Of a stretch of 15,405 bases of DNA, positions 1 to 14,612 are shown piece after piece (the stretch's first letter is position 1; the number at the start of each line of letters is the position of its first letter). Below the pieces are notes generated by a model. It ran no database searches. It was not told the DNA's origin and saw nothing but the letters and a program-made list of their open reading frames with translations. This DNA is from an uncultured Bacilli bacterium. GTDB taxonomy: Bacteria; Bacillota_I; Bacilli_A; RF39; UBA660. Both the position numbers and the translations under genes were made by a program. The DNA lies in contig CANQQV010000028.1 of NCBI GenBank assembly GCA_947626095.1, positions 1-15,405 on the forward strand, in the 5' to 3' direction.

Positions 1-76
1 AATAAAAAAATTATTCAAAAAAAATTACGCATAAAAAAACCTCCAGAAAAAATCTGGAGGTTTGTCTACACTCTGA
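1..76 (+). mobile_element. Possible right end of an insertion sequence (IS1182-like), with a transposase C-terminus possibly running in from upstream
   Basis: Hairpin AAACCTCCAGA/TCTGGAGGTTT (37-63) runs into GTCTACACTCTGA. Frame +1 is open 1-144 (NKKIIQKKLRIKKPPEKIWRFVYTL...). I recall FVYSL/FVNSL-type tails and TTTGTCTACAnTCTGA ends from Firmicutes IS1182-type elements. The transposase itself is not in the window. Confidence 0.4.
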
Positions 77-109
77 ACTATTTAAATAAATATTTAAATA
101 GTTTTTTTT
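76..109 (+). terminator. AT-rich hairpin followed by T-run, putative intrinsic terminator
   Basis: AACTATTTAAATA (76-88), AA loop, TATTTAAATAGTT (91-103), then TTTTTT. Confidence 0.5.
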
Positions 110-158
110 ACTATGCAAATTATTTTGGAGAGAATAAATTATGATAGGGGAGGTATTT

Positions 159-578
159 ATGAATAATAACACTAATTGTTTATTGCAATCAGCAAGACAA
201 AAAATAAATAATTATAATGCAAATAATAATTCATCTAATGGAACTTGTTGCGGTTTTAGAGATTTATCAGTTGGTCCACAAGGCCCAACAGGTCCTCAAG
301 GTCCGACAGGACCAACGGGACCTCAAGGTATTCAAGGTGTCCAAGGTATTCAGGGAATTATAGGACCGACTGGTCCTCAAGGTATTCAAGGAATACAAGG
401 TAATCCTGGAACGGTTGGAGCGACGGGAGCACAAGGACCAATAGGACCAACCGGAGCTACAGGTCCAACTGGTCCAGCGGGAGCTACGGGACCACAAGGA
501 ATTCAGGGGTTAATAGGTTTAACAGGTGAAACAGGACCAACGGGACCTACTCATACTCTTAAAAGTGAAAGTAATTAA
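159..578 (+). CDS. Collagen-like protein, 5' part of a split gene (native sequence ends at 550; HTLKSESN* tail comes from the inserted element)
   Basis: SD GGGGAGGT (147-154) precedes ATG 159. Asn-rich N-terminus with Cys-Cys, then 31 consecutive GXY triplets (273-551; GPT/GPQ/GIQ-rich) that stop abruptly at the element boundary. Confidence 0.9.
534..570. repeat. attL-like junction: collagen half-site, AC core (549-550), element arm (551-570)
   Basis: GGACCAACGGGACCT-AC-TCATACTCTTAAAAGTGAAA. The arm 551-570 is the reverse complement of 3777-3796 at 19/20 positions. Confidence 0.9.
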
Positions 579-664
579 AATTATATTTTATTAGTTTTTT
601 ATTAAATTGTTATTATTTTTAATAAATAAAAAAGCCGTTAGCATAAGTTTAAATAGGTGAACTT

Positions 665-778
665 ATGAAAATTACAAGTACATTTAATGAAAAAGGTAAA
701 ACGTTGCAAGAAATAATGGAGCAATTTTTAATTATATTTTATAGTGAAAATATTAGTAAAATAAGATACAAGGATTGA
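665..778 (+). CDS. 37-aa micro-ORF upstream of the recombinase; candidate recombination directionality factor
   Basis: SD-like AGGTGA (655-660), ATG 665, MKITSTFNEKGKTLQEIMEQFLIIFYSENISKIRYKD*. Its TGA (776-778) lies 4 nt before the recombinase ATG. Absent from the supplied ORF track. Function is inferred from position only. Confidence 0.6.
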   Translation: MKITSTFNEKGKTLQEIMEQFLIIFYSENISKIRYKD

Positions 779-782
779 AAGT

Positions 783-2366
783 ATGAGTATTAATGAAACT
801 TATAAAGTTGGTATATATTTAAGATTATCTCGTGATGATTTGAAAGATGATGAAAGTCAAAGTATAAGTTATCAAAGAGATTATATAATGAATTATATTA
901 CACGAAATAATCTAGGATTGATTGATGAATATGTTGATGATGGTGTAAGTGGTACGGAGTTTGATAGAAATGGTTGGAATAGACTAATTGAAGATATAGA
1001 ACGTGGTCGGATTAATATGGTTATTACAAAAGATACAAGTCGTTTAGGTCGTAATATATCACAGAGTTTATATTATTCCACTGAATATTTTCAAGAAAAA
1101 AATGTAAGATATGTTGCTTTAACAGATGGAATAGATACATTTGATAAATCACAAAATACGGATATGTTAATGTTTAAAGCATTTTATAATGAAATGTATG
1201 TAAAAGATATATCTACTAAAATTAAAGCAACTTTAAACTCTCAAAAAAGAAATGGCAAGTTTATGGGTGGTATAGCACCTTATGGCTATGAAAGAAACCT
1301 ACCATACGATAAGCACGAACTTATTATAAATGAAGAACAAGCAACCATAGTTAAAAGAATATATGACTTATTCATAAATGGTATGGGTATCAAGAAAATT
1401 GCTAATCTACTAACTGATGAAAATGTGCCTATACCAAGCATACAAAAAAATCTTAATCGTGGTGTTAAGTCTAGTGTATATGGAATTTGGCAGGAAACAA
1501 CTATAAGTAGTATACTTACTAATCCAACTTATAAGGGAGATTTAACACAATGTCGTGAGTATAAGGTTAGTTATAAATCGAAGAAAAGAAGAAAAAATGA
1601 TAGAAAAAATTGGATTATAGCAAAAGGTGCTTGTCCGGCTATTATTGATGAAGAAACCTTTAATATCGTTCAAGATATGTACTCTAAAAATAAAAATAGA
1701 ACCGATAACTCATTAGAATATCTTTTAAGAGGATTTTTGGTATGTAAAGAGTGTGGACACACTATTTCAATAAGCCAATCGAAATGGTCTTGTAATGGAG
1801 TAAAGAAAACAAAAAACATTTGTTATTGCAACTATTGGAAAAAGTTTTCAAAGTATGATGTATGTACTCCCCATAAAATTGATTATGATGAGTTAGAACA
1901 AGAAGTATTAAAAGATATTAGAAATAAATGTAGAGCATATTTAAAAACAAGTAATTTTGAGGAATTACTAAAAAAAAGTGATAGAATGAATAAGATACAA
2001 TTGGATTTAGAGAAACAATTAACAAAAATCAAAAAAGATATAAAGGAACAAACATTTTTCTTTGATAAATTATATAAAGATAAATTAAAAGGATTAATAG
2101 ATGAAGGAATATTTAAAAGACAATATAACAACCTTACAATTGAAACATTAAACTTAAAGAAAAAAGCAAACGAAATTGAAACAAAGTTATATGCAATTAA
2201 AAATCAAATGACTAATAAAAATAGTATGAAATATAAAAGTATAATTAAAGAGTTTTTATCTTTAAAGAAACCTAGTAAAAAACTCTTAGCATCATTAATT
2301 GATAAAATAGTGATAGACGAGGAACAAAATGTTAATATTTGTTACAAAATAAAATCGTTATATTAA
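783..2366 (+). CDS. Large serine recombinase / serine integrase (resolvase + recombinase + zinc ribbon + coiled coil; SpoIVCA/CisA-like architecture)
   Basis: Catalytic YLRLS motif, DDGVSGT, KDTSRLGRN, APYGY and ILTNPTYKG of the recombinase domain, LLRGFLVCKECG...C...C zinc ribbon, C-terminal coiled coil and LIDKIVI. Confidence 0.96.
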   Translation: MSINETYKVGIYLRLSRDDLKDDESQSISYQRDYIMNYITRNNLGLIDEYVDDGVSGTEFDRNGWNRLIEDIERGRINMVITKDTSRLGRNISQSLYYSTEYFQEKNVRYVALTDGIDTFDKSQNTDMLMFKAFYNEMYVKDISTKIKATLNSQKRNGKFMGGIAPYGYERNLPYDKHELIINEEQATIVKRIYDLFINGMGIKKIANLLTDENVPIPSIQKNLNRGVKSSVYGIWQETTISSILTNPTYKGDLTQCREYKVSYKSKKRRKNDRKNWIIAKGACPAIIDEETFNIVQDMYSKNKNRTDNSLEYLLRGFLVCKECGHTISISQSKWSCNGVKKTKNICYCNYWKKFSKYDVCTPHKIDYDELEQEVLKDIRNKCRAYLKTSNFEELLKKSDRMNKIQLDLEKQLTKIKKDIKEQTFFFDKLYKDKLKGLIDEGIFKRQYNNLTIETLNLKKKANEIETKLYAIKNQMTNKNSMKYKSIIKEFLSLKKPSKKLLASLIDKIVIDEEQNVNICYKIKSLY

Positions 2367-2469
2367 AGTAAATAATCTTAAAAAATGTTAGTAATAAATA
2401 TTTATTATTTATAAAATAACTTCAAAGTGTAAAAAAAATTATAATTTTTGGATGATTATACAACATTTA

Positions 2470-2498
2470 TTGTAAACATATAAAATTTAGTGTAAAAT
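2470..2498 (+). promoter_or_regulatory. Putative sigma-A promoter for the cargo genes
   Basis: TTGTAA (2470-2475), 17 nt, TAAAAT (2493-2498), followed by SD-like AAGGTAGG before ATG 2524. Confidence 0.5.
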
Positions 2499-2523
2499 TT
2501 ATGTAGAAAGGTAGGTTAAATAA

Positions 2524-3069
2524 ATGAAAGGAAAGACAGTTGGAAAAATTGTTGAATGGGTTGAAGAAAACAATGAACATTATCCTGTATTTTTGTTTAC
2601 AACGAATGATAATGTGGAAATAAAATCAAGATGTAAAGTTAAAATAGATAATGAAATATTAGAATCAAGTTTAGAAAGCTTATATGCTTTTGAAACTGTT
2701 AATAAAATATTATTAGTTCCTCTTCCTCATGAGGGAATATATATTTCTTATGATGTTGAAAATCCTAATAATTTTTGCGCAAAATGGGATGTTGATCCTA
2801 AATATTATTTAAATCCAGAAAGTAATAAAAATGAGGAAAAAGAAACAATAATACAACTTATTGGATATTATTTAGCATTAGTTGTATTTCTTATAGTTCC
2901 TTTTTTGGGCCTATTTCTGCCTGGTATGGAGTTGATGCGTTATAAAAACAAATATGAATATGAGCATGAGAAAAGTGCATTACCAAAATTAATTTTGTTT
3001 TCGATATTAATTGTCCTTGAAATTATCTATAGTATTACTTTTATAGTCTTAAATTATATTATTAAATAG
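2524..3069 (+). CDS. Hypothetical membrane protein (element cargo 1)
   Basis: 181 aa with SD. Soluble N-terminal region loosely like DUF3592-type proteins (GKIV...YPVFLFTT...ISYDVENP), plus two C-terminal hydrophobic helices. Confidence 0.75.
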   Translation: MKGKTVGKIVEWVEENNEHYPVFLFTTNDNVEIKSRCKVKIDNEILESSLESLYAFETVNKILLVPLPHEGIYISYDVENPNNFCAKWDVDPKYYLNPESNKNEEKETIIQLIGYYLALVVFLIVPFLGLFLPGMELMRYKNKYEYEHEKSALPKLILFSILIVLEIIYSITFIVLNYIIK

Positions 3070-3079
3070 GAGTAAAATT

Positions 3080-3628
3080 ATGATAGAAAGAATATATAGT
3101 TATAATGATAATAATAAATATTTAAAATTAAATACACTAGATAAGATTGCCATAGCTTTAGGCATTTTTGGTTTGTGTTTTACTTTACTTATTTTAACTT
3201 TGGTTTTAATTGAAGATGACGGAGAATTTGCATATGTAATAGCAATATTTATGGTAATGGAAGTTGTTCCTTGTGCATTATTTTTAGTCGGTTCGAAAAA
3301 TAGGCATTTACATTTGTTAGATACGTGGGTAGTAACTTCAAATAAGGAAATATATTTTATTGAGCCGAACGACTTGGCATTAGAAAAAGAGTTTAGAGAT
3401 ATAAATTATTTAAATAGATTAATTCAAGTTTCTAATAATGCTGATTATGTTTGTTACTATAAACTGGAACAAATTATTGCTATTGAAGAAAATAAAAATT
3501 ATGTTAATGTTAAATTCGTTGGTAAAGGAAACTTTGATCAGAAAAGTGTTAATAAAAATGTTTATGTTATGAAGTCTATGCCTAATTTTAATGAATTAAT
3601 GGAAGATTTAAAAAAGATACATAATTAA
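3080..3628 (+). CDS. Hypothetical membrane protein (element cargo 2)
   Basis: 182 aa, SD AGGAG immediately after the previous stop, two N-terminal hydrophobic helices followed by a soluble domain. Confidence 0.78.
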   Translation: MIERIYSYNDNNKYLKLNTLDKIAIALGIFGLCFTLLILTLVLIEDDGEFAYVIAIFMVMEVVPCALFLVGSKNRHLHLLDTWVVTSNKEIYFIEPNDLALEKEFRDINYLNRLIQVSNNADYVCYYKLEQIIAIEENKNYVNVKFVGKGNFDQKSVNKNVYVMKSMPNFNELMEDLKKIHN

Positions 3629-3720
3629 GGAAAGATTGTTGAAGTAAAAAATAATATATATGATATTTTTTAGTCTATACCATAAATATTATTATAATTA
3701 TTCAACTAATTATAAAATAG

Positions 3721-3747
3721 AAATGATGATACTTTCATCATTTTTTT
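3721..3747 (+). terminator. Intrinsic terminator closing the cargo operon
   Basis: AAATGATGA (3721-3729), TACTT loop, TCATCATTT (3735-3743), then TTTT. Confidence 0.65.
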
Positions 3748-3776
3748 GTTAAATTTTTATGCAAGTAAAATATTCT

Positions 3777-3813
3777 TTTCACTTTTAAGGGTATGAACAG
3801 GTCCAACTGGTCC
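3777..3813. repeat. attR-like junction: element arm (3777-3796), AC core (3797-3798), collagen half-site
   Basis: TTTCACTTTTAAGGGTATGA-AC-AGGTCCAACTGGTCC. Confidence 0.9.
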
Positions 3814-4021
3814 TACAGGACCTATTGGTGAGACTGGTCCACAAGGTGAAACGGGAGCAGCAGGAGCTGATGCACCAACACCAACAATAACTATTGGGAC
3901 AGTAACTACTGGAGCACCAGGATCAACTGCTACGGCTACTTTAACGGGAACAGCACCAAATTATACTTTAGATTTAACTATTCCACAAGGTCCAACTGGG
4001 CCAGCGGGAGCTGCTGCATAA
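3797..4021 (+). CDS. Collagen-like protein, 3' part of the split gene (no start codon of its own)
   Basis: Translates [74 protein letters not shown] (TAA 4019-4021). It is preceded by an in-frame TGA (3794-3796) and is missed by the ORF track. Confidence 0.9.
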   Translation, partial: TGPTGPTGPIGETGPQGETGAAGADAPTPTITIGTVTTGAPGSTATATLTGTAPNYTLDLTIPQGPTGPAGAAA

Positions 4022-4047
4022 TAAAAAGACTTTAATAAGTCTTTTTA
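4022..4047. terminator. Bidirectional intrinsic terminator between the collagen 3' end and the CAP-domain gene
   Basis: TAAAAAGACTT-TAAT-AAGTCTTTTTA with A-run and T-run flanks, directly after the collagen TAA. Confidence 0.8.
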
Positions 4048-5631
4048 TGTTGAGAAAATTTGAACAATATATGTTTTTTTATTGAAGGTCATTTTACCGA
4101 TTCCGGTTTTGGTATACATACCTGTTAAGATAATCTCACGGTGTGGTGGGGAATTCATTAAACCATTAAATGCTAATTTATCTGTTGCGAAGTTGTAGGC
4201 GATTATTTCTGCACGAGCTGAAGGTACTGATAAACCATATTCATCCCATAAAGTTATCCAATAAGTACCATCGGGACGATTATGTCCTTCGAAAGGAATA
4301 TTAGAGTAAACTAATTCCATAGCTCGCATTGTTGCGACCATACATAAGTGATAGTTTAATTCGACTTCATTTAATCCGGCATTTTTACGAACTTGATTAG
4401 TATAATTCATAAAGTTAACTAGAACTTCACCATATTCTTTATTTTCTGTATTTCTAGTATTATAGATATACATAGCTTCTTCTAACATTGTTTTAGCTCT
4501 GCCATTAAATTTATTAAGAGCATAATTAACACTGGTTGAAGGGTAGCCACTGTAATCAGTTATACTATAATGACAGCTAGCATCTCTTTTATATTCGACA
4601 TAGTTAAATGTAATATTTTCTTTTGTACCATAATGATCGATTGATAAAGTGTAGTTATTTGCTTTTTTACTTTCAACAGAGCAACTACGTTTTTCTGGGG
4701 TTATTACGTTAGAAGCATTAAATGAATGAACTGAACTTGGCTTTTTAGATCCACCACTAGGTTTGGTAGTAGAACCACTGCTAGGTTTAGTTGTACTGCC
4801 ACCACTAGGCTTGGTAGTAGAGCTACCACCACTAGGTTTGGTAGTAGAACTACCACCGCTAGGTTTAGTTGTACTGCCACCACTAGGGGTTTGAGGTGCT
4901 GTAATAGTTAGTTTAGTAGTACCTTCATTACAATTATTAGCTATATCACAGACGATTAATGTAACATCTAAGATATTTGCTTTACTTAAATCATATTCTT
5001 CTTTAAAACTAACTGTATAATCGTTTATTTGACTATTATCACTATAGGTATCAACAAAATCTTTGAGATTTAATTCCTTACCAGCTTCAATTGATAATTC
5101 TTTTAAAGTGAAAGTAGGAATAATAGTATCGACAATTGATAGTTTGGTTTCATATTCGTAGTCACCAAAGATAACAACATCGATTGTTCTAATTCCTTTT
5201 AAATAGTAGTCGCCATCTTTTTCATAAGTGAATTGCTCAAGATTTAAAGAATTTTTATTTTCAAAATATTGAGCGGATATATTATCTGGTAGTTCATAAT
5301 CTTCACGAAAATAGTCTTTTAATTCAGGAAGAATGGTTCCTGTTTCAACTACTAATTCTTCTTTTATGTAACCATCTACCAGTTCAATATATTTAATACC
5401 GTCCTCTTCTATATATCTTAGTTTACTTTCATTTTTATTAAGAAGAGAGCTTAAACCAATTGTTATATTAAAGACTGTAAGAATGAAGATAGTTATAGTT
5501 ACGGCAAGGGTAGTATTACTGAATTTTTTACGTAGTTTATCTGTGTCTTCTTGATCGTTATAAGAAATAATATTAGATAATTTTTGGGGAATAGATTTTA
5601 TTGTATTAGTAATCTTATCTATAACTTTCAT
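4045..5631 (-). CDS. Membrane-anchored CAP/SCP-domain protein with S/T/G/K/P linker
   Basis: N-terminal TM helix and low-complexity linker. C-terminal CAP motifs: TNQVRKNAGLNEV, ATMRAMEL, HNRPDG, AEIIA, LMNSPPHREIIL, TGIG, YIVQIF. SD AAGGTG. Confidence 0.88.
   Translation of the reverse strand: MKVIDKITNTIKSIPQKLSNIISYNDQEDTDKLRKKFSNTTLAVTITIFILTVFNITIGLSSLLNKNESKLRYIEEDGIKYIELVDGYIKEELVVETGTILPELKDYFREDYELPDNISAQYFENKNSLNLEQFTYEKDGDYYLKGIRTIDVVIFGDYEYETKLSIVDTIIPTFTLKELSIEAGKELNLKDFVDTYSDNSQINDYTVSFKEEYDLSKANILDVTLIVCDIANNCNEGTTKLTITAPQTPSGGSTTKPSGGSSTTKPSGGSSTTKPSGGSTTKPSSGSTTKPSGGSKKPSSVHSFNASNVITPEKRSCSVESKKANNYTLSIDHYGTKENITFNYVEYKRDASCHYSITDYSGYPSTSVNYALNKFNGRAKTMLEEAMYIYNTRNTENKEYGEVLVNFMNYTNQVRKNAGLNEVELNYHLCMVATMRAMELVYSNIPFEGHNRPDGTYWITLWDEYGLSVPSARAEIIAYNFATDKLAFNGLMNSPPHREIILTGMYTKTGIGKMTFNKKTYIVQIFST
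4735..4887 (-). repeat. Coding tandem repeat (PSGGS[S]TTK, about 6 units of 24/27 bp)
   Basis: PSGGSTTK-PSGGSSTTK-PSGGSSTTK-PSGGSTTK-PSSGSTTK-PSGGSKK-PSS in the CAP protein. Confidence 0.9.
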
Positions 5632-5716: not shown

Positions 5717-6820
5717 ATGAAAAAACATAAAATAACAGTATATGCAATCACGAAAAATGAAGAAAAAAATGTTAAAGAATGGTATCAATCAATGAAAGAA
5801 GCTGATGAGATAATTGTTTTGGATACTGGTTCAGATGATAATACTGTTAAATATTTAAAAGAATGTCCTAAAATAAAAGTGTATGAACAAGTAATAAAGC
5901 CTTGGCGTTTTGATGAAGCAAGAAATTTATCTTTGTCTTATGTATCTTTAGATACTGATATATGCGTGTGTACTGATTTAGATGAAAGATTTAATAAAGG
6001 TTGGGCAGAATTAGTAAGAAAAGAATGGAAGGAAGGAGTAACAAGGGGAAGATATTTATATAATTGGAGTTTTGATAAGTATGGAAAACCAGGAACAACT
6101 TTTTATATAAATAAAATTCATTCACGAAATGATTATATATGGAAACATCCAGTTCATGAAGTATTAAGTTGTCTTACTAAAGAAAAGGAAATTTCAATAC
6201 CAAATTTAGTGTTAAATCATTATCAAGATTATAGTAAGGCAAGAACAAGTTATTTGACGTTACTAGAATTATCAGTTAAAGAAGATCCGGCGGATGACCG
6301 AAATATGCACTATTTAGGTAGAGAATACATGTATTATAAGGAATATGATAAAGCAATAGATACTTTACATAAACATTTAGTTTTACCTTCGGCTACTTGG
6401 AAAGATGAGAGATGTGCATCGATGAGATATATGGCTTATTGTTATTTTAATAAGGGATATATTGAAGAAGCTATTATGTGGAATAAAGAAGCAATTAGAG
6501 AAGCGCCATATTTAAGAGAACCTTATTTTGATTTAGGAAATTTATTTTATTTAATTAAAGATTATGTAAATAGTGAATATTATTTAAGAAAGGCTTTGCA
6601 AATAAAAAAGATAAGTTATACATATATTAATGAGGAAAAAGCTTGGAATGAAACAATATATGATTTATTAGCTTTTGATTGCTATCAAAATAAGAAATAT
6701 AGTGAAGCATATAAATATATTAGAAAAGCAATTAAAATTAATAGTGATGATGAACGATTAAGAAGAAACTATGAAATAATTAAAGAAAAATATCTTAAAA
6801 ATAAAAATAGAAGAGATTAA
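5717..6820 (+). CDS. Family 2 glycosyltransferase with C-terminal TPR repeats
   Basis: ITKNEE, ADEIIVLDTGSDDNT, FDEARNLSL, DLDE (DxD), HPVHE motifs, followed by TPR-like helices (HYLGREY...AI, PYFDLGNLFY). Confidence 0.92.
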   Translation: MKKHKITVYAITKNEEKNVKEWYQSMKEADEIIVLDTGSDDNTVKYLKECPKIKVYEQVIKPWRFDEARNLSLSYVSLDTDICVCTDLDERFNKGWAELVRKEWKEGVTRGRYLYNWSFDKYGKPGTTFYINKIHSRNDYIWKHPVHEVLSCLTKEKEISIPNLVLNHYQDYSKARTSYLTLLELSVKEDPADDRNMHYLGREYMYYKEYDKAIDTLHKHLVLPSATWKDERCASMRYMAYCYFNKGYIEEAIMWNKEAIREAPYLREPYFDLGNLFYLIKDYVNSEYYLRKALQIKKISYTYINEEKAWNETIYDLLAFDCYQNKKYSEAYKYIRKAIKINSDDERLRRNYEIIKEKYLKNKNRRD

Positions 6821-6832
6821 TTCTCTTCTATT
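6806..6832. terminator. Hairpin formed from the 3' ends of two convergent genes, with the shared TTAA stops in the loop
   Basis: AATAGAAGAGA (6806-6816), TTAAT, TCTCTTCTATT (6822-6832): perfect 11-bp stem. Confidence 0.6.
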
Positions 6833-9800
6833 GTATTTATAATTAAGTTTACTTCTTTAGAAGCACGTTCATCATATGGTAAGATGTACTTAATATAATT
6901 ATTCTTTTCAGTTACGAATAAGACAAAATCATCACCTAAGTAGATAGTTTTCATTACACTTAGAGAAACATCTTCAATTAATTCATCAGGATTTTCTAGT
7001 TGCCATAAATACATAATAGCACTTATTTTATCTAAGTATTCTTCACCAATATTATTACTTAATTTAATAACTGTATTTCTTTTTCTTAAGTATTTAGCAT
7101 CAGCATCATAGTATTTAAAGTTGTTTTTATCAACAATGTCATTACTAGCAAGTAGAGTACTTATATTATCTTCATAATTAGTATATATATCATCAGGATT
7201 AAGTAAATTCTTATTAGAAGCAAAATCATCGTAATCAATATATACTTTATTAATTGGATTATTAATAATAGGACATAATGTTGTATCAACATTTAAGCCA
7301 TTACGACTTTGATAGATATTATTATTAACGATAGTAACGTATTCTATTGGTTCGTTATTATCTTTAGTAATACTTATTAAACGCATTGCAAAGTTTCTTA
7401 AAAGTTCATTGTATTCAGTATCTTTACAACCTTCTAAAGCGTTTAAGTATAATGTATTACCATTTCTAAGACCTAAGATTTTAGCAACTAATGTATTGTT
7501 ATAGTAAATTCCTAGTTGAATACCATTTTTATCTAAAATAGAATAATGTAAGAAATCGTTACCAATAGCACCGACTTTAAATAAAGAACCTTTAATACTT
7601 TTTAAGATATCTTGATTATAGTTATCTAAAACTTTTATTTCATAATCATTATCAATGTAGTTTAAATATGGAATAGTACTACTAATCCTTTTAAATGAAT
7701 CTTTAAATAAGTTCATAAGAATTTCAATACGTTTATTTAGATCTAAGACTTCATAGTAACCATCGTCATATGTGGCTTTAATAATATTTTTATCTAAGAT
7801 TTTAGATAATGGATTGTTATCGAAGTTAATTAAAGTAAGAATATTTTCAATGTTAATTAAAGTCATGCTGTTAATATCTAAATCAAGATTAGTGATATAT
7901 TCTTTTATTTTTGGCCATTTAGAGATAATAACGCCCAAGTTATCAACAATACCATCGTAATAACCATCAGCAACCATAATTAAATTCTTTTTATCGATTA
8001 AGAAAGTCTTTAATTCATCATCTATCTTTTGATAGTTGAGTAAATCATAACCATTAAAAATATTTTCAATATCTTTTAAAGATAGAACACGTTTTTTTAG
8101 CTCATAGTATTTAGTAGTAATAGGGAAGGTGAATTCTTCTTTTTCTAAAGCTTTTAAATAGTCATGATTAAAGGCATTTTTAACTTTTTCAGTACTAATA
8201 TTGCGGTTGGCGTAATTAGCTGTTTTGGTGATAATATCATCTAATATTTCTATGTAATTGTTATATTCAATAATTTCGTCAATATTATAAATATCAATAT
8301 TATCTTTATAAATAAACTTATAAGTATTTTTATCGATATATATTTCACCATTTAAGTTTTTTACTAGTTCTTGATATTTATTAATTAATTTTTTAGTCGT
8401 AGGAGTTATTTTAAAAGATAATTCTTCTTGATAGCAGATAGTATTCATTATTTCTAATACTTCATTATCTTTATATGTACTTCTTAATCTTTCAATTTTA
8501 GCATTTAACTCGGTAATACTATTAATATCTTGAAGATACTTTATATAAATATCAGCATCTTTAGGTTTTTTAATACCTAAGTGGTTTAAACAATTCTCTT
8601 TATCAAAGCGATCATTAATAATAGGGGTTAAAACATGTTCTAAGATACTATCAAAATCGACATCTTTACTAGCTAGTAATTTAAGATATTTATCTTTAAT
8701 TTTATCGATTGGATAATTATCTTTAAAATAGGGAATATAAGATTCTTTGTTAGGATCAGTTAAGGCTCTAACAAAGAGTTTGAACTTTAACTTGTTAATA
8801 TACAAATTACCAAATTCTTTTCTTTTGGTATAAATAACTCTTTCTTTAGGCTTAAAGTTTTTCATTATTAATTTATCGAAGTTACTGTTATATTCATTAT
8901 ATTTATTATCAATATATAAAGTAGTGAAGGCGTTGGTATAATCGTATAGTTGTTTTTTAGCGTTGTAGTTATCATAAGATGAATATTTTAGATAATCATA
9001 AAATTTATCAATAATCGAATTATATGTATCAAAATTATTATCTAACATAATATATATAACATTGTCTAAGTAAGTATTTTTTCTTATTTCATTAGCAAAT
9101 TCGTTAATGTTGTTAGTAGGTTCAATATTTTTTAAATTATTTATAATTTTTTTCGCCATATTTTGAAAAATAGATGAATTGTTTTCTTTAAAGATAAGAA
9201 TTCTTTCGTTAATAATATCGTGTTGTAAAGTTTGGATTTCATTTAAAGTTATATTCATATTACCATTATTAACGATTTTTAAAGTTTCATCTAAGCCAAG
9301 AGTTAGATAACTAATTAAAGTACTTTTATAACTTAAAACAGATGGTTTGAAATCTTGTTTAGATAATAATGATTTCATACGAATTGTTTCATATAAATAA
9401 CTAACTTCATCAAAATCTATTTCGTTTATTTGGTCATCACTTAAGTTGAATAACTTTTTAATTAATTGACGATTTTTAAAGATTTTTAAGTCTATTTTTT
9501 CTTCAAAGTAACGATCAATATAAGATATTGTATCAGTTGTGTTAAAAGTATTTAATATTTCCGGAATATCAAAAATCTTGTTTATATTAAGTTTTTTGTT
9601 AAGACATAAATTAATTATTTCGTAATTACTTAATTTATCTAAAATATATGGAAGGGTTATAAAATATAAAACGTCTTCACTATCTAAAAGATTAAGCATT
9701 TCATAAACCATGTTATGTTCTGATTTATAAATAAGAATAGGGCTATCTAAGAAACCTTTAACAAAGATTGCATCTTTATCTGTAACTTTAATATGAAGAT

Positions 9801-10986
9801 TATTAATCTTATCAAAGATAATTTTTCTTTGTAACATATTGAAAGCAGCTTTGAAACTTAATTTGTTAATTAATAATTCAATGGCATATGAACTGGTATC
9901 ATTAATAAAATTATCATCTCTTAAATTATTGACGATATCTTCTTCAGAAAATTTATTATTAATCGCTTCGATAATGATAGTATCGATGAAACGATTAAAT
10001 AGGGAGTAATCATTAAATATTTGAGTTTGTAAATCTTTACTTAGGTCTTCAAAAGGATATACACTAATACTATCTTTAGGACATCTCTTTAAATTATCAA
10101 GACTAAAATAAGTATTAGCATCTTCATTATTATATTTATATAGCTTTTGGATAATAGAACTAAATGATTCGTCGTCTAAATGTTTATCTTTGCTTATTTT
10201 AGTTATTTCGATAATATTGAATAAATCAAGATATTTATGGTTAAACTTACCGATAAAGTTAGGATTAGTTAATAGAAAGTTGTAAATATTTTCATTATCA
10301 ACATTATTAAAAATTAAACCATTAGGTTCGATATAATCATATATTTCTTTATTACTTGTATATAGGTTATAGAAATCTTCAAAATTTTTACATTTCTTTA
10401 ATAATATTTTAGTAAATGATTCTTTAGTTAAGATACGACATGTTTCATTGTTGTTAAGATTTAAAAGAGAAATAACAGAATATGAGCAATTGATATGTAA
10501 ACTAGCAGAAGGTATCTTAGCTATTAATTCATTATCTTTAATAATAGTAGCTAAGAATTCATTATCTTTTAAGTTAATATTATTAATTTCTTCATTAATA
10601 AACAAAATATCTGTATCATTATATCTTTTTTTATCTTTTAGATATGATAGTTTATCATCAATATCTAAAGTATTCCATAATGAAAGGAAAAGACTATTGT
10701 CTTTAATAACTTCTTCATATTCTGTTTGATTATATATAATAGATAATCTTTGTTCTTTATTTAAATTAACGAGAAAATCATTTAGATATTGATCATACAT
10801 ATAATAATTTTCATTAGTTTTAGTTGACATTAGAAGACGTAAGTCTTCAAGAAGATTATCACTATTTTGTAAATACTTAATAATTGCTTCGAGATTATTA
10901 TTATCCTTTTTTGATAGTTTAGAACTCTTGTATAATAAAGAATGAATAATATTTTCTAAGATTACTTTTAATTCATTTATATTCAT
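6817..10986 (-). CDS. Large hypothetical protein (1389 aa), probably cytoplasmic
   Basis: 4.2-kb uninterrupted ORF with SD GAAGGGG. No signal peptide or TM segment seen. No family recognised with confidence. Confidence 0.85.
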   Translation of the reverse strand: MNINELKVILENIIHSLLYKSSKLSKKDNNNLEAIIKYLQNSDNLLEDLRLLMSTKTNENYYMYDQYLNDFLVNLNKEQRLSIIYNQTEYEEVIKDNSLFLSLWNTLDIDDKLSYLKDKKRYNDTDILFINEEINNINLKDNEFLATIIKDNELIAKIPSASLHINCSYSVISLLNLNNNETCRILTKESFTKILLKKCKNFEDFYNLYTSNKEIYDYIEPNGLIFNNVDNENIYNFLLTNPNFIGKFNHKYLDLFNIIEITKISKDKHLDDESFSSIIQKLYKYNNEDANTYFSLDNLKRCPKDSISVYPFEDLSKDLQTQIFNDYSLFNRFIDTIIIEAINNKFSEEDIVNNLRDDNFINDTSSYAIELLINKLSFKAAFNMLQRKIIFDKINNLHIKVTDKDAIFVKGFLDSPILIYKSEHNMVYEMLNLLDSEDVLYFITLPYILDKLSNYEIINLCLNKKLNINKIFDIPEILNTFNTTDTISYIDRYFEEKIDLKIFKNRQLIKKLFNLSDDQINEIDFDEVSYLYETIRMKSLLSKQDFKPSVLSYKSTLISYLTLGLDETLKIVNNGNMNITLNEIQTLQHDIINERILIFKENNSSIFQNMAKKIINNLKNIEPTNNINEFANEIRKNTYLDNVIYIMLDNNFDTYNSIIDKFYDYLKYSSYDNYNAKKQLYDYTNAFTTLYIDNKYNEYNSNFDKLIMKNFKPKERVIYTKRKEFGNLYINKLKFKLFVRALTDPNKESYIPYFKDNYPIDKIKDKYLKLLASKDVDFDSILEHVLTPIINDRFDKENCLNHLGIKKPKDADIYIKYLQDINSITELNAKIERLRSTYKDNEVLEIMNTICYQEELSFKITPTTKKLINKYQELVKNLNGEIYIDKNTYKFIYKDNIDIYNIDEIIEYNNYIEILDDIITKTANYANRNISTEKVKNAFNHDYLKALEKEEFTFPITTKYYELKKRVLSLKDIENIFNGYDLLNYQKIDDELKTFLIDKKNLIMVADGYYDGIVDNLGVIISKWPKIKEYITNLDLDINSMTLINIENILTLINFDNNPLSKILDKNIIKATYDDGYYEVLDLNKRIEILMNLFKDSFKRISSTIPYLNYIDNDYEIKVLDNYNQDILKSIKGSLFKVGAIGNDFLHYSILDKNGIQLGIYYNNTLVAKILGLRNGNTLYLNALEGCKDTEYNELLRNFAMRLISITKDNNEPIEYVTIVNNNIYQSRNGLNVDTTLCPIINNPINKVYIDYDDFASNKNLLNPDDIYTNYEDNISTLLASNDIVDKNNFKYYDADAKYLRKRNTVIKLSNNIGEEYLDKISAIMYLWQLENPDELIEDVSLSVMKTIYLGDDFVLFVTEKNNYIKYILPYDERASKEVNLIINTIEEN

Positions 10987-11027: not shown

Positions 11028-11057
11028 AAAAAGACTTAAGATAATTTAAGTCTTTTT
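11028..11057 (-). terminator. Intrinsic terminator after the sortase gene
   Basis: AAAAAGACTTAA (11028-11039), 6-nt loop, TTAAGTCTTTTT (11046-11057). Confidence 0.75.
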
Positions 11058-12654
11058 ATGAACTTTGTGTAGTTTCATCGGGATTAATGGTTGTTTCTTC
11101 AACTAGAACAGCGTGGACTACTAAACGATTATTATTATCTAAACAAGTAGATAGAGTAACTATTTTATCGTTGCTAGTTAGTTCGACGTCAAATTTTATT
11201 TGACTTCGTTTTTGTAATTTATTGTAGAATTTAAGACGATCGTTGTCCTTTAAGAATGAAGTATATAGATAATCGTTTGTAACATGAATACCATAAACAG
11301 AGAAGATACGCCATTTATAACCATGTTCCATAGTATTATAAGTAATATAATTATTTTCTTCTTTTTCAAAGAAAGATTTTTTACGAAGCTTTTGTAAAGT
11401 ACCAAACATAACACCACTAGAGAAACGGTTATGACCAAAGATAATAGTATTATCTTCTAAATCTTTAGGATTATTACGATAATCCATAAATAACCAGCCA
11501 TTAAAGTCAGTTTCATTATAGAAATTATGATCTAAGTAGTATGCGTTGTCTTCACTTTGAACAACAGGATAATCGACTTTAGTTCCAGGAATCATTAACC
11601 AACCAACCATGTTCTTATTGACTTCTAATAGAGCATCATAAGAACCGGGGATGAAGTATGAAGTATTAACTTCTTCAATATTTTTTGATGTTTCATCACT
11701 AATAATCTGATCGATATCTTGACGAATATCGTTGACTTTTAATTCTGAGTTATAGTTATTATAGAAGATATATCCTAAGACAGAGGCGATTATTATAAAA
11801 ATAATAGAAGCACAAATCTTTAAGGTTGTAAAAATAACTTGTTGTAAATAATTCTTCTCTAAATAATCATCAGAATAGATTAAAGATATTTTTACTTTAT
11901 ATCGATGTTTTAAATCTTTATTAATATTTCTTAATCTAATAATAGCATTTTCATCGTCAATATCATCATGTAATTGAATAGAAAGATTTTTCTTTTTAAC
12001 CTTTTTAATAATGTTGACAATGTTTAGAATATTTTCTTCAGAGTATTTATCAAAATGGATAACTTTAAGATATTTATTAATACTAAAGAAAGTTTCGATA
12101 TCTTTTAAATCATCAACAGTTAGAGTATTAGGAATTCTAACGTTGGTCTTATAATAAATTTTAGAAAATGATGTAAGGTTGTTGGAAGACATGAAGTTAC
12201 TAGTAAATAATACTTCGTAACGAGATTCAACTTTAATATCATTTTTATCCAATAATTCGATTAAGAATTCAGGGATACTATAGCAATCAATTTTTTTAAT
12301 GTTTTTAGCTTTAATTATTTTGTCACATAATTCATAAGAAACTACTTCATCTTCTGTAATAACAAAATTAGTTATTAAATTTAAACGAGATATTATGTCA
12401 ATTATTAGTAAAGCTATTTCTAATGAACTTACTTTAATTTCAGTTATTTCTCTAATCTTAGCTAGATCAGAAAGGAATAAACCAACTAATTTAGAATTTT
12501 CTTTTAAATATTCATCACTAAATACTAATTCGTTATTAGATATAACATTAGTATTTAAAAGATTAGTTGCAACTGGTTTATTAGTACGATACTTAAATAT
12601 TAGGGAATTATCTTGAATTTGAACAGTTATTTTTTTCATCGTACTCATCTCCAT
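11056..12654 (-). CDS. srtB: Class B sortase with a ~270-aa N-terminal extension
   Basis: VGWLMIPGTKVDYPVVQ, DNAYYLDHNF, NTIIFGHN (His), MFGTL, VTLSTC (Cys), RLVVHAVL (Arg). Single TM helix at about residues 272-298. Confidence 0.9.
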   Translation of the reverse strand: MEMSTMKKITVQIQDNSLIFKYRTNKPVATNLLNTNVISNNELVFSDEYLKENSKLVGLFLSDLAKIREITEIKVSSLEIALLIIDIISRLNLITNFVITEDEVVSYELCDKIIKAKNIKKIDCYSIPEFLIELLDKNDIKVESRYEVLFTSNFMSSNNLTSFSKIYYKTNVRIPNTLTVDDLKDIETFFSINKYLKVIHFDKYSEENILNIVNIIKKVKKKNLSIQLHDDIDDENAIIRLRNINKDLKHRYKVKISLIYSDDYLEKNYLQQVIFTTLKICASIIFIIIASVLGYIFYNNYNSELKVNDIRQDIDQIISDETSKNIEEVNTSYFIPGSYDALLEVNKNMVGWLMIPGTKVDYPVVQSEDNAYYLDHNFYNETDFNGWLFMDYRNNPKDLEDNTIIFGHNRFSSGVMFGTLQKLRKKSFFEKEENNYITYNTMEHGYKWRIFSVYGIHVTNDYLYTSFLKDNDRLKFYNKLQKRSQIKFDVELTSNDKIVTLSTCLDNNNRLVVHAVLVEETTINPDETTQSS

Positions 12655-12672
12655 TTTACTATTTACTATTTA

Positions 12673-12700
12673 ATAATATCATAAAATGTAAAATTTTCAA
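12673..12700 (-). promoter_or_regulatory. Putative sigma-A promoter of the sortase gene
   Basis: Minus strand TTGAAA, 16 nt, TATTAT, with TG at the extended -10 position. Confidence 0.5.
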
Positions 12701-12728
12701 AAAAAATTCGCACAAGATATTTTTTTCA

Positions 12729-12737
12729 TGCTACAAT
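12729..12737 (+). promoter_or_regulatory. Extended -10 promoter of surface protein copy 1
   Basis: TGCTACAAT, at the position equivalent to TGTTATAAT upstream of copy 2. Confidence 0.55.
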
Positions 12738-12775
12738 TATTTTAATAATAAAATAATAAGTATAGGAGATGTATT

Positions 12776-13627
12776 ATGAAAGAAATTAAAAATGTATTAT
12801 TGGTTCTTTTAATGTCTGTTTGTTCATTATTAATAGTCAACGTTATGACAGTTAAAGCGCAAGCTGGTATTGGTTTTAGTAATTTGAACCCAGTTTGTGA
12901 TCCAAGTGAAGATTTAAAGCTAGGAGAAAAAACAACTTGTTATGTACTTGGTAAAGGTACAGTAACAGTACCAGAAGGTGACAATGCTGAAAAGCAAGGT
13001 TTAACACACGGTTTTGTTGTAAGAATGTATACAACAGATGGTTTACTTTTTGATGAAGTTCAACCATATATAAATAACACTAATGCTGTTGCTTATTCTG
13101 CATCTGCAGGAAGTGATACACAGAATAGTTTTAAAGCTGGCGATGAAACAGTTAATTTTACTTGTTCATTTAATGGTAATTTAGCTGCTGAAAATTCTGC
13201 TTATCAATTTGAAGCTGGCGATATTTATAAGTGTGCTATTTATTATTCAAATAGTAAAGATCCATTAATTACTGTAAAATCAGGTGAACCAACAACTAAC
13301 ATTCAAGGACTTACAGGAAAAGATAATGGTATCATGGTTATTGGTAAAGTAATAGCTCATATTGATGAAAATAAAAAAGGTGAAACAAGCTGTGGAGAGT
13401 TATGTGTATATTCTACAGAAATAAAAACTACTAGTGAATATCAAAATGGATTACAAAGCTCAGAAAGATATTTATGTACAGAAGTTCACTTCAAAGATGA
13501 TAGTAGTACTTCACCTGGACCAAATACAGGAGCATTTGCCTCATATGCATTATTAGCTGCTGGTGCTTTAGTAGCAATTGGAGCAGTAACAATTGCTAGA
13601 AGAAATAATAAATTCTATAAAGTTTAA
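12776..13627 (+). CDS. Secreted Cys-rich surface protein with sortase sorting signal (GPNTG), copy 1
   Basis: SD AGGAG, signal peptide ending VKA, 7 Cys in the mature part, C-terminal SPGPNTG + hydrophobic helix + RRNNK tail. Confidence 0.88.
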   Translation: MKEIKNVLLVLLMSVCSLLIVNVMTVKAQAGIGFSNLNPVCDPSEDLKLGEKTTCYVLGKGTVTVPEGDNAEKQGLTHGFVVRMYTTDGLLFDEVQPYINNTNAVAYSASAGSDTQNSFKAGDETVNFTCSFNGNLAAENSAYQFEAGDIYKCAIYYSNSKDPLITVKSGEPTTNIQGLTGKDNGIMVIGKVIAHIDENKKGETSCGELCVYSTEIKTTSEYQNGLQSSERYLCTEVHFKDDSSTSPGPNTGAFASYALLAAGALVAIGAVTIARRNNKFYKV

Positions 13628-13650
13628 AAAAGGCCTTTGGTCTTTTTTTT
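13626..13650 (+). terminator. Intrinsic terminator after copy 1
   Basis: AAAAAAGGCC-TTT-GGTCTTTTTTTT. Confidence 0.7.
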
Positions 13651-13712
13651 ATATGTTAAAGTAGGTTAGTTATGTAAAATAGATAAAAATATTTCCACAA
13701 TACATATTTTCA

Positions 13713-13721
13713 TGTTATAAT
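13713..13721 (+). promoter_or_regulatory. Extended -10 promoter of surface protein copy 2
   Basis: Consensus TGTTATAAT about 40 nt upstream of ATG 13761. Confidence 0.65.
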
Positions 13722-13760
13722 AATAGCAGAATAAGGAAGAATAAGTATAGGAGATGTATT

Positions 13761-14612
13761 ATGAAAGAAATTAAAAATGTATTATTGGTTCTTTTGATAT
13801 CTGTTTGTTCATTATTACTAGTTAATGTTATGACAGTTAAAGCACAAGCTGGTATTGGTTTTAGTAATTTGAACCCAGTTTGTGATCCAAGCGAAGATTT
13901 AAAACTAGGAGAAAAAACAACTTGTTATGTACTTGGTAAAGGTACAGTAACAGTACCAGAAGGTGACAATGCTGAAAAGCAAGGTTTAACACACGGTTTT
14001 GTTGTAAGAATGTATACAACAGATGGTTTACTTTTTGATGAAGTTCAACCATATATAAATAACACTAATGCTGTTGCTTATTCTGCATCTGCAGGAAGTG
14101 ATACACAGAATAGTTTTAAAGCTGGCGATGAAACAGTTAATTTTACTTGTTCATTTAATGGTAATTTAGCTGCTGAAAATTCTGCTTATCAATTTGAAGC
14201 TGGCGATATTTATAAGTGTGCTATTTATTATTCAAATAGTAAAGATCCATTAATTACTGTAAAATCAGGTGAACCAACAACTAACATTCAAGGACTTACA
14301 GGAAAAGATAATGGTATCATGGTTATTGGTAAAGTAATAGCTCATATTGATGAAAATAAAAAAGGTGAAACAAGCTGTGGAGAGTTATGTGTATATTCTA
14401 CAGAAATAAAAACTACTAGTGAATATCAAAATGGATTACAAAGCTCAGAAAGATATTTATGTACAGAAGTTCACTTCAAAGATGATAGTAGTACTTCACC
14501 TGGACCAAATACAGGAGCATTTGCCTCATATGCATTATTAGCTGCTGGAGCTTTAATTGCTGTTAGTGCTGTTGCTATTGCAAAGAAACATAATAAGATT
14601 TATAGAGTTTAG
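13761..14612 (+). CDS. Secreted Cys-rich surface protein with sortase sorting signal (GPNTG), copy 2
   Basis: Same mature sequence as copy 1. Differs only in the signal peptide and in the TM/tail (LIAVSAVAIAKKHNKIYRV). Confidence 0.88.
   Translation: MKEIKNVLLVLLISVCSLLLVNVMTVKAQAGIGFSNLNPVCDPSEDLKLGEKTTCYVLGKGTVTVPEGDNAEKQGLTHGFVVRMYTTDGLLFDEVQPYINNTNAVAYSASAGSDTQNSFKAGDETVNFTCSFNGNLAAENSAYQFEAGDIYKCAIYYSNSKDPLITVKSGEPTTNIQGLTGKDNGIMVIGKVIAHIDENKKGETSCGELCVYSTEIKTTSEYQNGLQSSERYLCTEVHFKDDSSTSPGPNTGAFASYALLAAGALIAVSAVAIAKKHNKIYRV

Follow-up and report, generated by a model that had tools for sequence, protein, structure and literature searches.

A small serine-recombinase element, probably mobile, at an AC dinucleotide of a split collagen-like gene in an uncultured Bacilli bacterium

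Serine integrases act as dimers that bind their sites, introduce a double-strand cut with a 2-base stagger, exchange half-sites by rotation and religate the ends. In phiC31 and Bxb1 the central dinucleotide, which is non-palindromic, alone sets the polarity of this reaction. Among the non-phage elements, gin of Bacillus cereus ATCC 10987 is excised precisely, which rebuilds gerE, and codes for a tiny accessory protein, GirX; it holds 31 genes and three recombinases and uses a 9-bp overlap at one fixed site in a sporulation regulator (PMC5595907; here and below, PMC numbers refer to excerpts of the papers). In a similar way SPbeta interrupts spsM (PMC4191935). The serine integrase of Tn4451 works with 2-bp identities at numerous sites and needs no directionality factor (PMC5704250), and the term multi-targeting denotes a cluster of large serine recombinases (LSRs) that is integrated in more than three unrelated target gene clusters (PMC10083194). 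In this study we describe a locus related to these systems in a 15.4-kb contig (CANQQV010000028.1, assembly GCA_947626095.1) of an uncultured Bacilli bacterium; the whole contig of 15,405 nucleotides is called the window, and the metagenome-assembled genome to which it belongs is labelled G000. Very probably, positions 549-3798 of the window are a small mobile element in its integrated state. It splits a collagen-like gene, and its conserved genes are just two, a tiny open reading frame (ORF) and an LSR gene.

The integrated element is delimited by directly repeated AC dinucleotides at 549-550 and 3797-3798 with a spacing of 3248 bp, and all of these coordinates are as the original prediction had given them. 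The element arms just inside, 551-570 and 3777-3796, are inverted copies of each other at 19 of 20 positions, the value predicted for attP, and the host arms just outside, 534-548 and 3799-3813, are inverted at 12 of 15. The left attachment site, attL, spans 534-570 and consists of the left host arm (B), identified by comparing the junction with relatives, the AC crossover copy, which forms the first two bases of a Thr codon and was supported by the same comparison and by a pattern scan, and the element arm P', which is conserved in related elements and encodes a short tail and the stop of the truncated protein. Its counterpart attR spans 3777-3813, with the element arm P (placed by inverted pairing and junction comparison), the second AC copy (placed by junction comparison) and the right host arm (B'), whose letters are the same at the right junction of a relative, G013. 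Both junctions have AC alone in common, the adjacent bases being T/T on the left and A/A on the right. The pair of element arms ranks first among 158 inverted repeats in 1-4400 (43 nt, 81% complementary), and in a chance control none of 3,000,000 random position pairs in the window reached 19/20 (maximum 17, mean 6.1). When 14,004 AC..AC pairs lying 500-4000 bp apart in 1-4400 were compared, the 549/3797 pair was the best, and the next-best pairs (16 and 15) were the same junction displaced by 9 and 18 nt inside the collagen repeat. The att sites and the AC crossover are defined as well as sequence comparison allows. As AC is directly repeated, excision would be expected rather than inversion, and here our reading agrees with the earlier one.

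The interrupted gene belongs to the collagen-like genes. Its 5' part (159-550, plus strand) comprises an N-terminal region followed by Gly-X-Y repeats; the gene matches PF01391 Collagen (4.3e-17) and no further Pfam domain, and its start was taken from the ortholog alignment. As it stands this part runs on into the element and ends at a stop at 576-578. The 3' part (3797-4021, plus strand), 74 codons and a stop, is in frame with 159-550 after element removal: taking out 551-3798 gives a single collagen-like frame of ~204 aa, which can be aligned over its whole length with the intact orthologs of two congeneric species, G005 (188 aa) and G010 (223 aa). There the orthologs stand beside the same CAP-domain and GT2/TPR genes, and as far as alignment and gene order go the two intact genes are natural empty sites. 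The 3' half of the split gene is still open and ~90% like the C-terminus of the orthologs. Precise removal of the element restores the frame, as it does in the gene-intervening elements of sporulation (skin, SPbeta, gin, yin); the frame is open across the joint in every one of the ten elements with both junctions, one of which (L048) has a left flank of just 3 nt. The target protein has neither a hydrophobic N-terminal signal stretch nor an LPXTG motif, and its gene is the sole collagen-like gene assembled in G000.

The LSR gene (783-2366, plus strand) encodes the 527-aa protein with a YLRLS motif that had been noted before; the motif occupies residues 12-16, with Ser16 as the catalytic serine, and Y12, L13, R14, L15 and S16 are invariant in 13 of 13 aligned LSRs. 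Pfam assigns the domains PF00239 Resolvase (3e-23), PF07508 Recombinase (9.2e-24) and PF13408 Zn_ribbon_recom (4.6e-08), and among solved structures the catalytic domain matches TnpX of Tn4451 best (2mhc, 2.5e-23). DUF4368 gave no Pfam match in the window LSR at E<=0.01. Within the clade all catalytic and zinc-ribbon motifs are invariant, at a mean column identity of 84%. By these features the window element has the sequence-level properties of a serine-integrase element. The claim of a serine-integrase geometry, with inverted half-sites around a 2-bp core, is supported by the domains, by the restored gene and by the AC crossover that recurs in relatives.

For this recurrence we scanned for LSRs in one genome per species (G and L labels denote the genomes and loci retrieved) and obtained 12 loci with LSRs 75-91% identical to that of the window, all from uncultured low-G+C Bacilli of animal guts. 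A junction is present in 11 of the 12, the twelfth contig (L052, 1.6 kb) being too short. All 13 junction sets, the window included, lie in Gly-X-Y repeats, where the crossover falls on the AC of a Thr codon when the target is read in its coding sense. On the host side their consensus is GGNCCN-AC-NGGNCC, extended by more GGNCCNACN units, and on the element side it is ACTTTCACT-N7-GTATGA / TCATAC-N7-AGTGAAAG, the two arms being the inverse of each other. The elements measure 2602 to 10,198 bp, and the target genes differ in their N- and C-terminal parts. In G013, a genome of the same genus, an LSR 85% identical belongs to an 8811-bp element that interrupts another collagen-like gene, one with a larger C-terminal domain; the junctions have the same arm type and an AC core. 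Scanning the genome contigs with an attL-type pattern gave 82 matches, 27 in low-G+C loci and 55 in high-G+C loci. The 27 have a core of AC (16) or GT (11) and no other, and 15 of them are on contigs outside the loci already collected; the 55 are chance matches and scatter over 14 dinucleotides. Together, the junction comparison shows that the same motif has apparently been used repeatedly by independent insertions. The clade seems to behave as a motif-targeting (multi-target) integrase, with many collagen-like genes as targets, sometimes several insertions per gene, and variable cargo.

Outside this clade the association was not seen. Viral contigs held 0 relatives of the window LSR, and the phage and plasmid collections gave no LSR match above 35% identity. 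A metagenome search with the LSR alignment kept 80 loci of 471 relatives, most of them 33-55% identical, and none of the 80 had a collagen-like flank or the arm motif adjoining the LSR; one partial metagenome contig carries an LSR 85% identical. Likewise, the 1.5-kb flanks of the distant LSRs at L009-L026, which reach 51% identity at most, contain no Gly-X-Y repeats. G000 itself holds one copy only of the window's element. Two more distant LSR genes, 32% and 26% identical and ~8 kb apart, are found in G000 at C1:42360-52880.

Some loci are more complex than that of the window. At L044:1000-19600 one minus-strand collagen-like gene lies in at least four pieces with three insertions. Two of these have the arm type described here and an AC core, one being the element with the 91%-identical LSR and the other carrying an LSR-like ORF of 476 aa (12218-13648); the third (~1243-4566) has different arms and another LSR (1249-2853, 534 aa). 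At L049:2566-2720 two elements stand in tandem within a single gene, an attR-type junction being followed by 126 bp of collagen repeat and then by the attL-type junction of a second element.

Following the established mechanism, recombinase dimers on each site would make a double-strand cut at AC, staggered by 2 bases; a rotation of one half-site pair by 180 degrees and religation of the ends would follow. Integration at AC would in this way have split the collagen-like gene, and recombination of attL with attR would give a 3248-bp circle with attP together with the rebuilt gene of ~204 aa. With both sites nearly symmetric, orientation would depend on the AC core alone, and relatives with the core flipped relative to the LSR gene do sit reversed in their target genes. 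Among the 12 elements with a visible LSR gene, nine have it parallel to the target gene and three (L044, L053, L054) opposite. Read in LSR orientation, these three have unchanged arms and a core of GT instead of AC. Such core-only flips are what the rule of a polarity-setting central dinucleotide predicts. A tree of the 13 LSRs, with support for only one of its 10 inner branches, is too poorly resolved to count the flips: its best topology requires three core changes, yet these may go back to a single origin.

Directly upstream of the LSR gene lies a tiny ORF of 37 aa (665-778, plus strand), which may code for an accessory or directionality factor. All 12 elements have such an ORF, of 31-37 aa, ahead of the LSR. 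Of 1436 nucleotide differences among 15 copies, 934 affect third codon positions, so the tiny ORF is translated and under constraint. Its relatives among 1.84 billion representative proteins numbered 16, each 31-71 aa long. An RNA hairpin is predicted over its ribosome-binding site and start codon (642-667, plus strand; -9.5 kcal/mol, z -2.7); the corresponding DNA is conserved in 10 of 12 aligned upstream regions, and the hairpin is predicted in four of six copies folded, two copies retaining the pairing via a G-U change. The binding site of known directionality factors is on the second DNA-binding domain, close to the coiled coil (PMC12286644), and one of them, GirX of gin, has 42 aa (PMC5595907); the tiny ORF was therefore folded with LSR residues 305-527, from alignments made for this study. 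The predicted complex received weak support, with a score of 0.54 (runs 0.73, 0.41 and 0.54), the best of three controls scoring 0.00. The mark used is passed by 58 of 80 solved complexes and by 2 of 110 mismatched pairs; scores of 0.60 or less at the mark belong to 7 of the 80 solved complexes and to both mismatches. Agreement between the runs is at least 68% of contacts, with a partner pLDDT of at least 55. As a first guess, and as a lead rather than a finding, the tiny ORF may be a directionality factor acting on the second DNA-binding domain of the LSR. The tiny ORF and a small HTH_17-like gene are also retained with a more distant LSR, 51% identical (L009:1294-3087), whose genome is of another family within the order; no collagen repeats adjoin this LSR, and the next ORF (3109-3840) may be the far part of another split gene.

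The remainder of the window element is cargo. Two ORFs with hydrophobic stretches, of 181 aa (2524-3069, plus strand) and 182 aa (3080-3628, plus strand), have no Pfam, PHROG or PADLOC match and could be placed in no family; in the atlas the first leads to a DUF3592-like cluster at just 0.77 and the second to unnamed clusters at 0.94. Identity with the DUF3592 cargo of L047 was considered and rejected, as there is no similarity (E 0.37). Cargo varies between elements. The sole cargo gene of a 2.7-kb element (L046:8994-9848) strongly matches PDC-S13, a candidate phage-defence family of PADLOC (1.8e-106), and, weakly, Bro-N, and mini-elements of this kind may ferry defence genes. Other elements carry a zinc-dependent phospholipase C-like protein (L050) or a DUF3592 membrane protein (L047), and those of 7-10 kb carry HTH_3 and HTH_17-like proteins and zinc-ribbon membrane proteins.

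The stretch is also present in Logan contigs of four runs, from two samples of one study of rabbit gut. The left junction is covered by contigs X3 (349-1164) and X4 (432-791), and the right junction by X2 (2877-3859), X3 (3581-3869) and X4 (3519-3838), so that both junctions are bridged in two samples, which may include the window's own source. In these contigs neither a joint from 550 to 3799 nor a circle joint is listed, but contigs drop rare variants, and the absence therefore says nothing about excision. The joints that are listed are read as cross-matches: 1034-1894 and 3495-3636 have sides of 21 nt, and 3819-to-285 lies inside collagen repeats.

The host genome G000 measures 1.6 Mb with 28% G+C and is 91% complete with 7.9% contamination; spo0A (114.5 bits) and spoIVA (345.9 bits) were matched in it. 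By Pfam, the neighbours of the collagen-like gene are CAP-domain and GT2/TPR genes, and a glycosyltransferase gene is nearby. Beside the collagen-like gene there is a surface-protein locus (11056-14612) with a sortase-domain protein of 531 aa and two tandem paralogs of 283 aa, at least one of which has an LPXTG anchor. A 1388-aa ORF at 6817-10986 has no Pfam match.

Several observations weigh against the reading as an integrated mobile element. The original prediction regarded attB as symmetric around AC. The count of 12/15 stands and is the highest among 33 in-frame AC positions of the rebuilt gene, yet two others reach 11/15, and the signal is a weaker one that comes largely from the collagen codons. 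Other AC sites come near to the attB symmetry because Gly-Pro-Thr-Gly-Pro codons (GGN-CCN-ACN-GGN-CC) form a dyad around AC whatever the wobble bases, and the attB dyad is mostly a by-product of this. As the dyad recurs many times in collagen-like genes, attB is a motif and no unique site; the nine strict motif sites in G000 all lie within the split gene. Furthermore, the window element is built unlike all its relatives. Its tiny ORF and LSR gene adjoin attL and its cargo lies between the LSR gene and attR, whereas in the relatives (L045-L055) the 3' end of the LSR gene is ~50 bp from the attR junction and the cargo is upstream. Seen on the circle, attP lies on the opposite side of the LSR gene from its position in the relatives, and the stretch from the LSR gene to the cargo of the window element shows no relic arms. 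The relatives were mostly assembled from few gut studies, so that the insertions are not all independent, and G013 and L054, equal in junction letters and length, are probably one record. An intact attP pattern had 0 matches in genome contigs and metagenome contigs, and no recombination product was seen. With regard to the tiny ORF, it also precedes LSRs of 47-55% identity outside collagen genes, its conservation exceeds that of the LSR, contrary to what is usual for directionality factors, and its complex score is a weak pass only.

What the element does for its host might be read in different ways. Spore proteins of the BclA type likewise have no signal stretch and have a glycosyltransferase gene nearby. 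Compatible with a mobile element, though rather doubtful in our view, is a developmental switch, in which excision in the mother cell during sporulation would rebuild a spore-surface collagen-like gene and the spore would keep the element, as with skin, SPbeta and gin. The host has spo0A and spoIVA, the target resembles the BclA type in having neither signal stretch nor LPXTG and in the glycosyltransferase gene near it, both gene halves are open in 10 of 10 elements, and gin in gerE and SPbeta in spsM are precedents. Transcription of the target gene would enter the tiny ORF and the LSR gene, and no terminator-like site was found in 551-664. However, such read-through cannot be general, as elements lie in either orientation and the LSR gene may be at the far end of long cargo. 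Pfam gives the target as Collagen only, without a sporulation gene identity, the sortase and LPXTG neighbours suggest the vegetative cell surface, and SASP had no match in the 91%-complete G000. Variable cargo and multiple insertions per gene look selfish. The aligned upstreams of the target gene and of the tiny ORF contain no recognisable sporulation-type promoter; a promoter scan, with 29 sites against 28.0 expected, was uninformative. We hold it to be just as tentative that the element is a transposon of the Tn4451 type, in which the LSR alone would excise and insert without a directionality factor and the tiny ORF would have another role, for example in the control of LSR expression. The match of the catalytic domain to TnpX, the many targets, the tandem insertions (L049, L044) and the small size would fit, and the hairpin over the start codon of the tiny ORF suggests regulation. 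Yet element and target arms are dissimilar, which in phage-type integrases is a mark of one-way reactions, DUF4368 is not matched at E<=0.01 as compared with 63% of the multi-targeting clade (PMC10083194), and the complex prediction of tiny ORF and LSR did pass, if weakly.

Two further explanations would leave no mobile element at all. The insertion might be fixed and immobile, with an inactivated gene and att sites as relics, and the single copy in G000 and the lack of an excised form in the data reached would agree with this. We consider it improbable, as the LSR is full length with invariant catalytic and zinc-ribbon motifs and a clade column identity of 84%, 19 of 20 arm positions still pair, the 3' half of the gene is open and ~90% like the C-terminus of the orthologs, and close LSR relatives sit in many different genes. 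An assembly artefact or chance palindromes could be suspected in a metagenome-assembled genome with 7.9% contamination, since collagen repeats are prone to misassembly; but Logan contigs from two samples (which may include the source) bridge both junctions, the same architecture occurs in 11 other records, and the chance control gave 0 of 3,000,000, so that we see next to no room for it. An integrated mobile serine-integrase element remains our preferred reading. In its boldest form, which we think unlikely, a clade that recognises the collagen-codon dyad and uses the smallest known directionality factor (31-37 aa) would leave spore-surface genes in the mother cell and be both a selfish carrier and a switch, and AC-to-GT flips, possibly via palindromic GC/AT cores at Ala/Ile codons, would reverse its orientation.

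With regard to use as a tool, the locus offers a matched integrase, attP, natural attB variants and a candidate directionality factor, at an attB motif that is short and repetitive. To call the integrase and its predicted sites ready-made, as the original prediction did, overlooks that the direction-controlling factor is so far a candidate at best. Judging from the literature searched, several features appear to be new: a repeated coding motif as attB, which gives many harmless landing sites in one gene class; small elements, the shortest of 2.6 kb, whose single cargo genes are exchangeable and in one case a candidate for phage defence; natural variants that differ by a flip of the core dinucleotide alone, with the element reversed; and the conserved tiny partner ORF. 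Our literature search found no paper on recombinases targeting collagen-like genes. In the excerpted main text of PMC10083194 the word 'collagen' is absent, and the supplementary tables of that paper may list the clade. One may also ask, in view of this locus, whether gut spore-formers use excision to switch their surface collagen-like proteins.

In conclusion, the chemistry and site geometry of this element are textbook serine-integrase biology. With phiC31, Bxb1, A118/LI and SprA of SPbeta the window LSR shares three domains, short sites and inverted half-sites around a 2-bp crossover; unlike in phiC31-type systems, the element is non-phage, its family measures 2.6-10 kb, and attB is a repeated coding motif. 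Like gin in gerE, with its recombinase GirC and GirX (PMC5595907), it is a non-phage serine-recombinase element inside a coding sequence, but it has one recombinase and a 2-bp core, and its clade has many target genes. The clostridial elements Tn4451/Tn4453 (TnpX) and Tn5397 (TndX) resemble the window clade in being small and non-phage, with a 2-bp crossover and several targets (PMC5704250). They differ in having a GA core, targets that resemble the element joint and genes for mobilisation and resistance, and in working without a directionality factor. In the window clade all 13 junction sets have an AC core and host arms (GGNCCN) that do not resemble the element arms (GTATGA/TCATAC), and the window's element showed no mob gene. 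In behaviour the clade may resemble the multi-targeting LSRs, in which one LSR cluster is found in several unrelated genes and the motif is longer than the core; in the excerpts of PMC10083194 that clade commonly has DUF4368 and AT-rich motifs, whereas the window LSR has no DUF4368 match and a GC-rich coding motif as its target.

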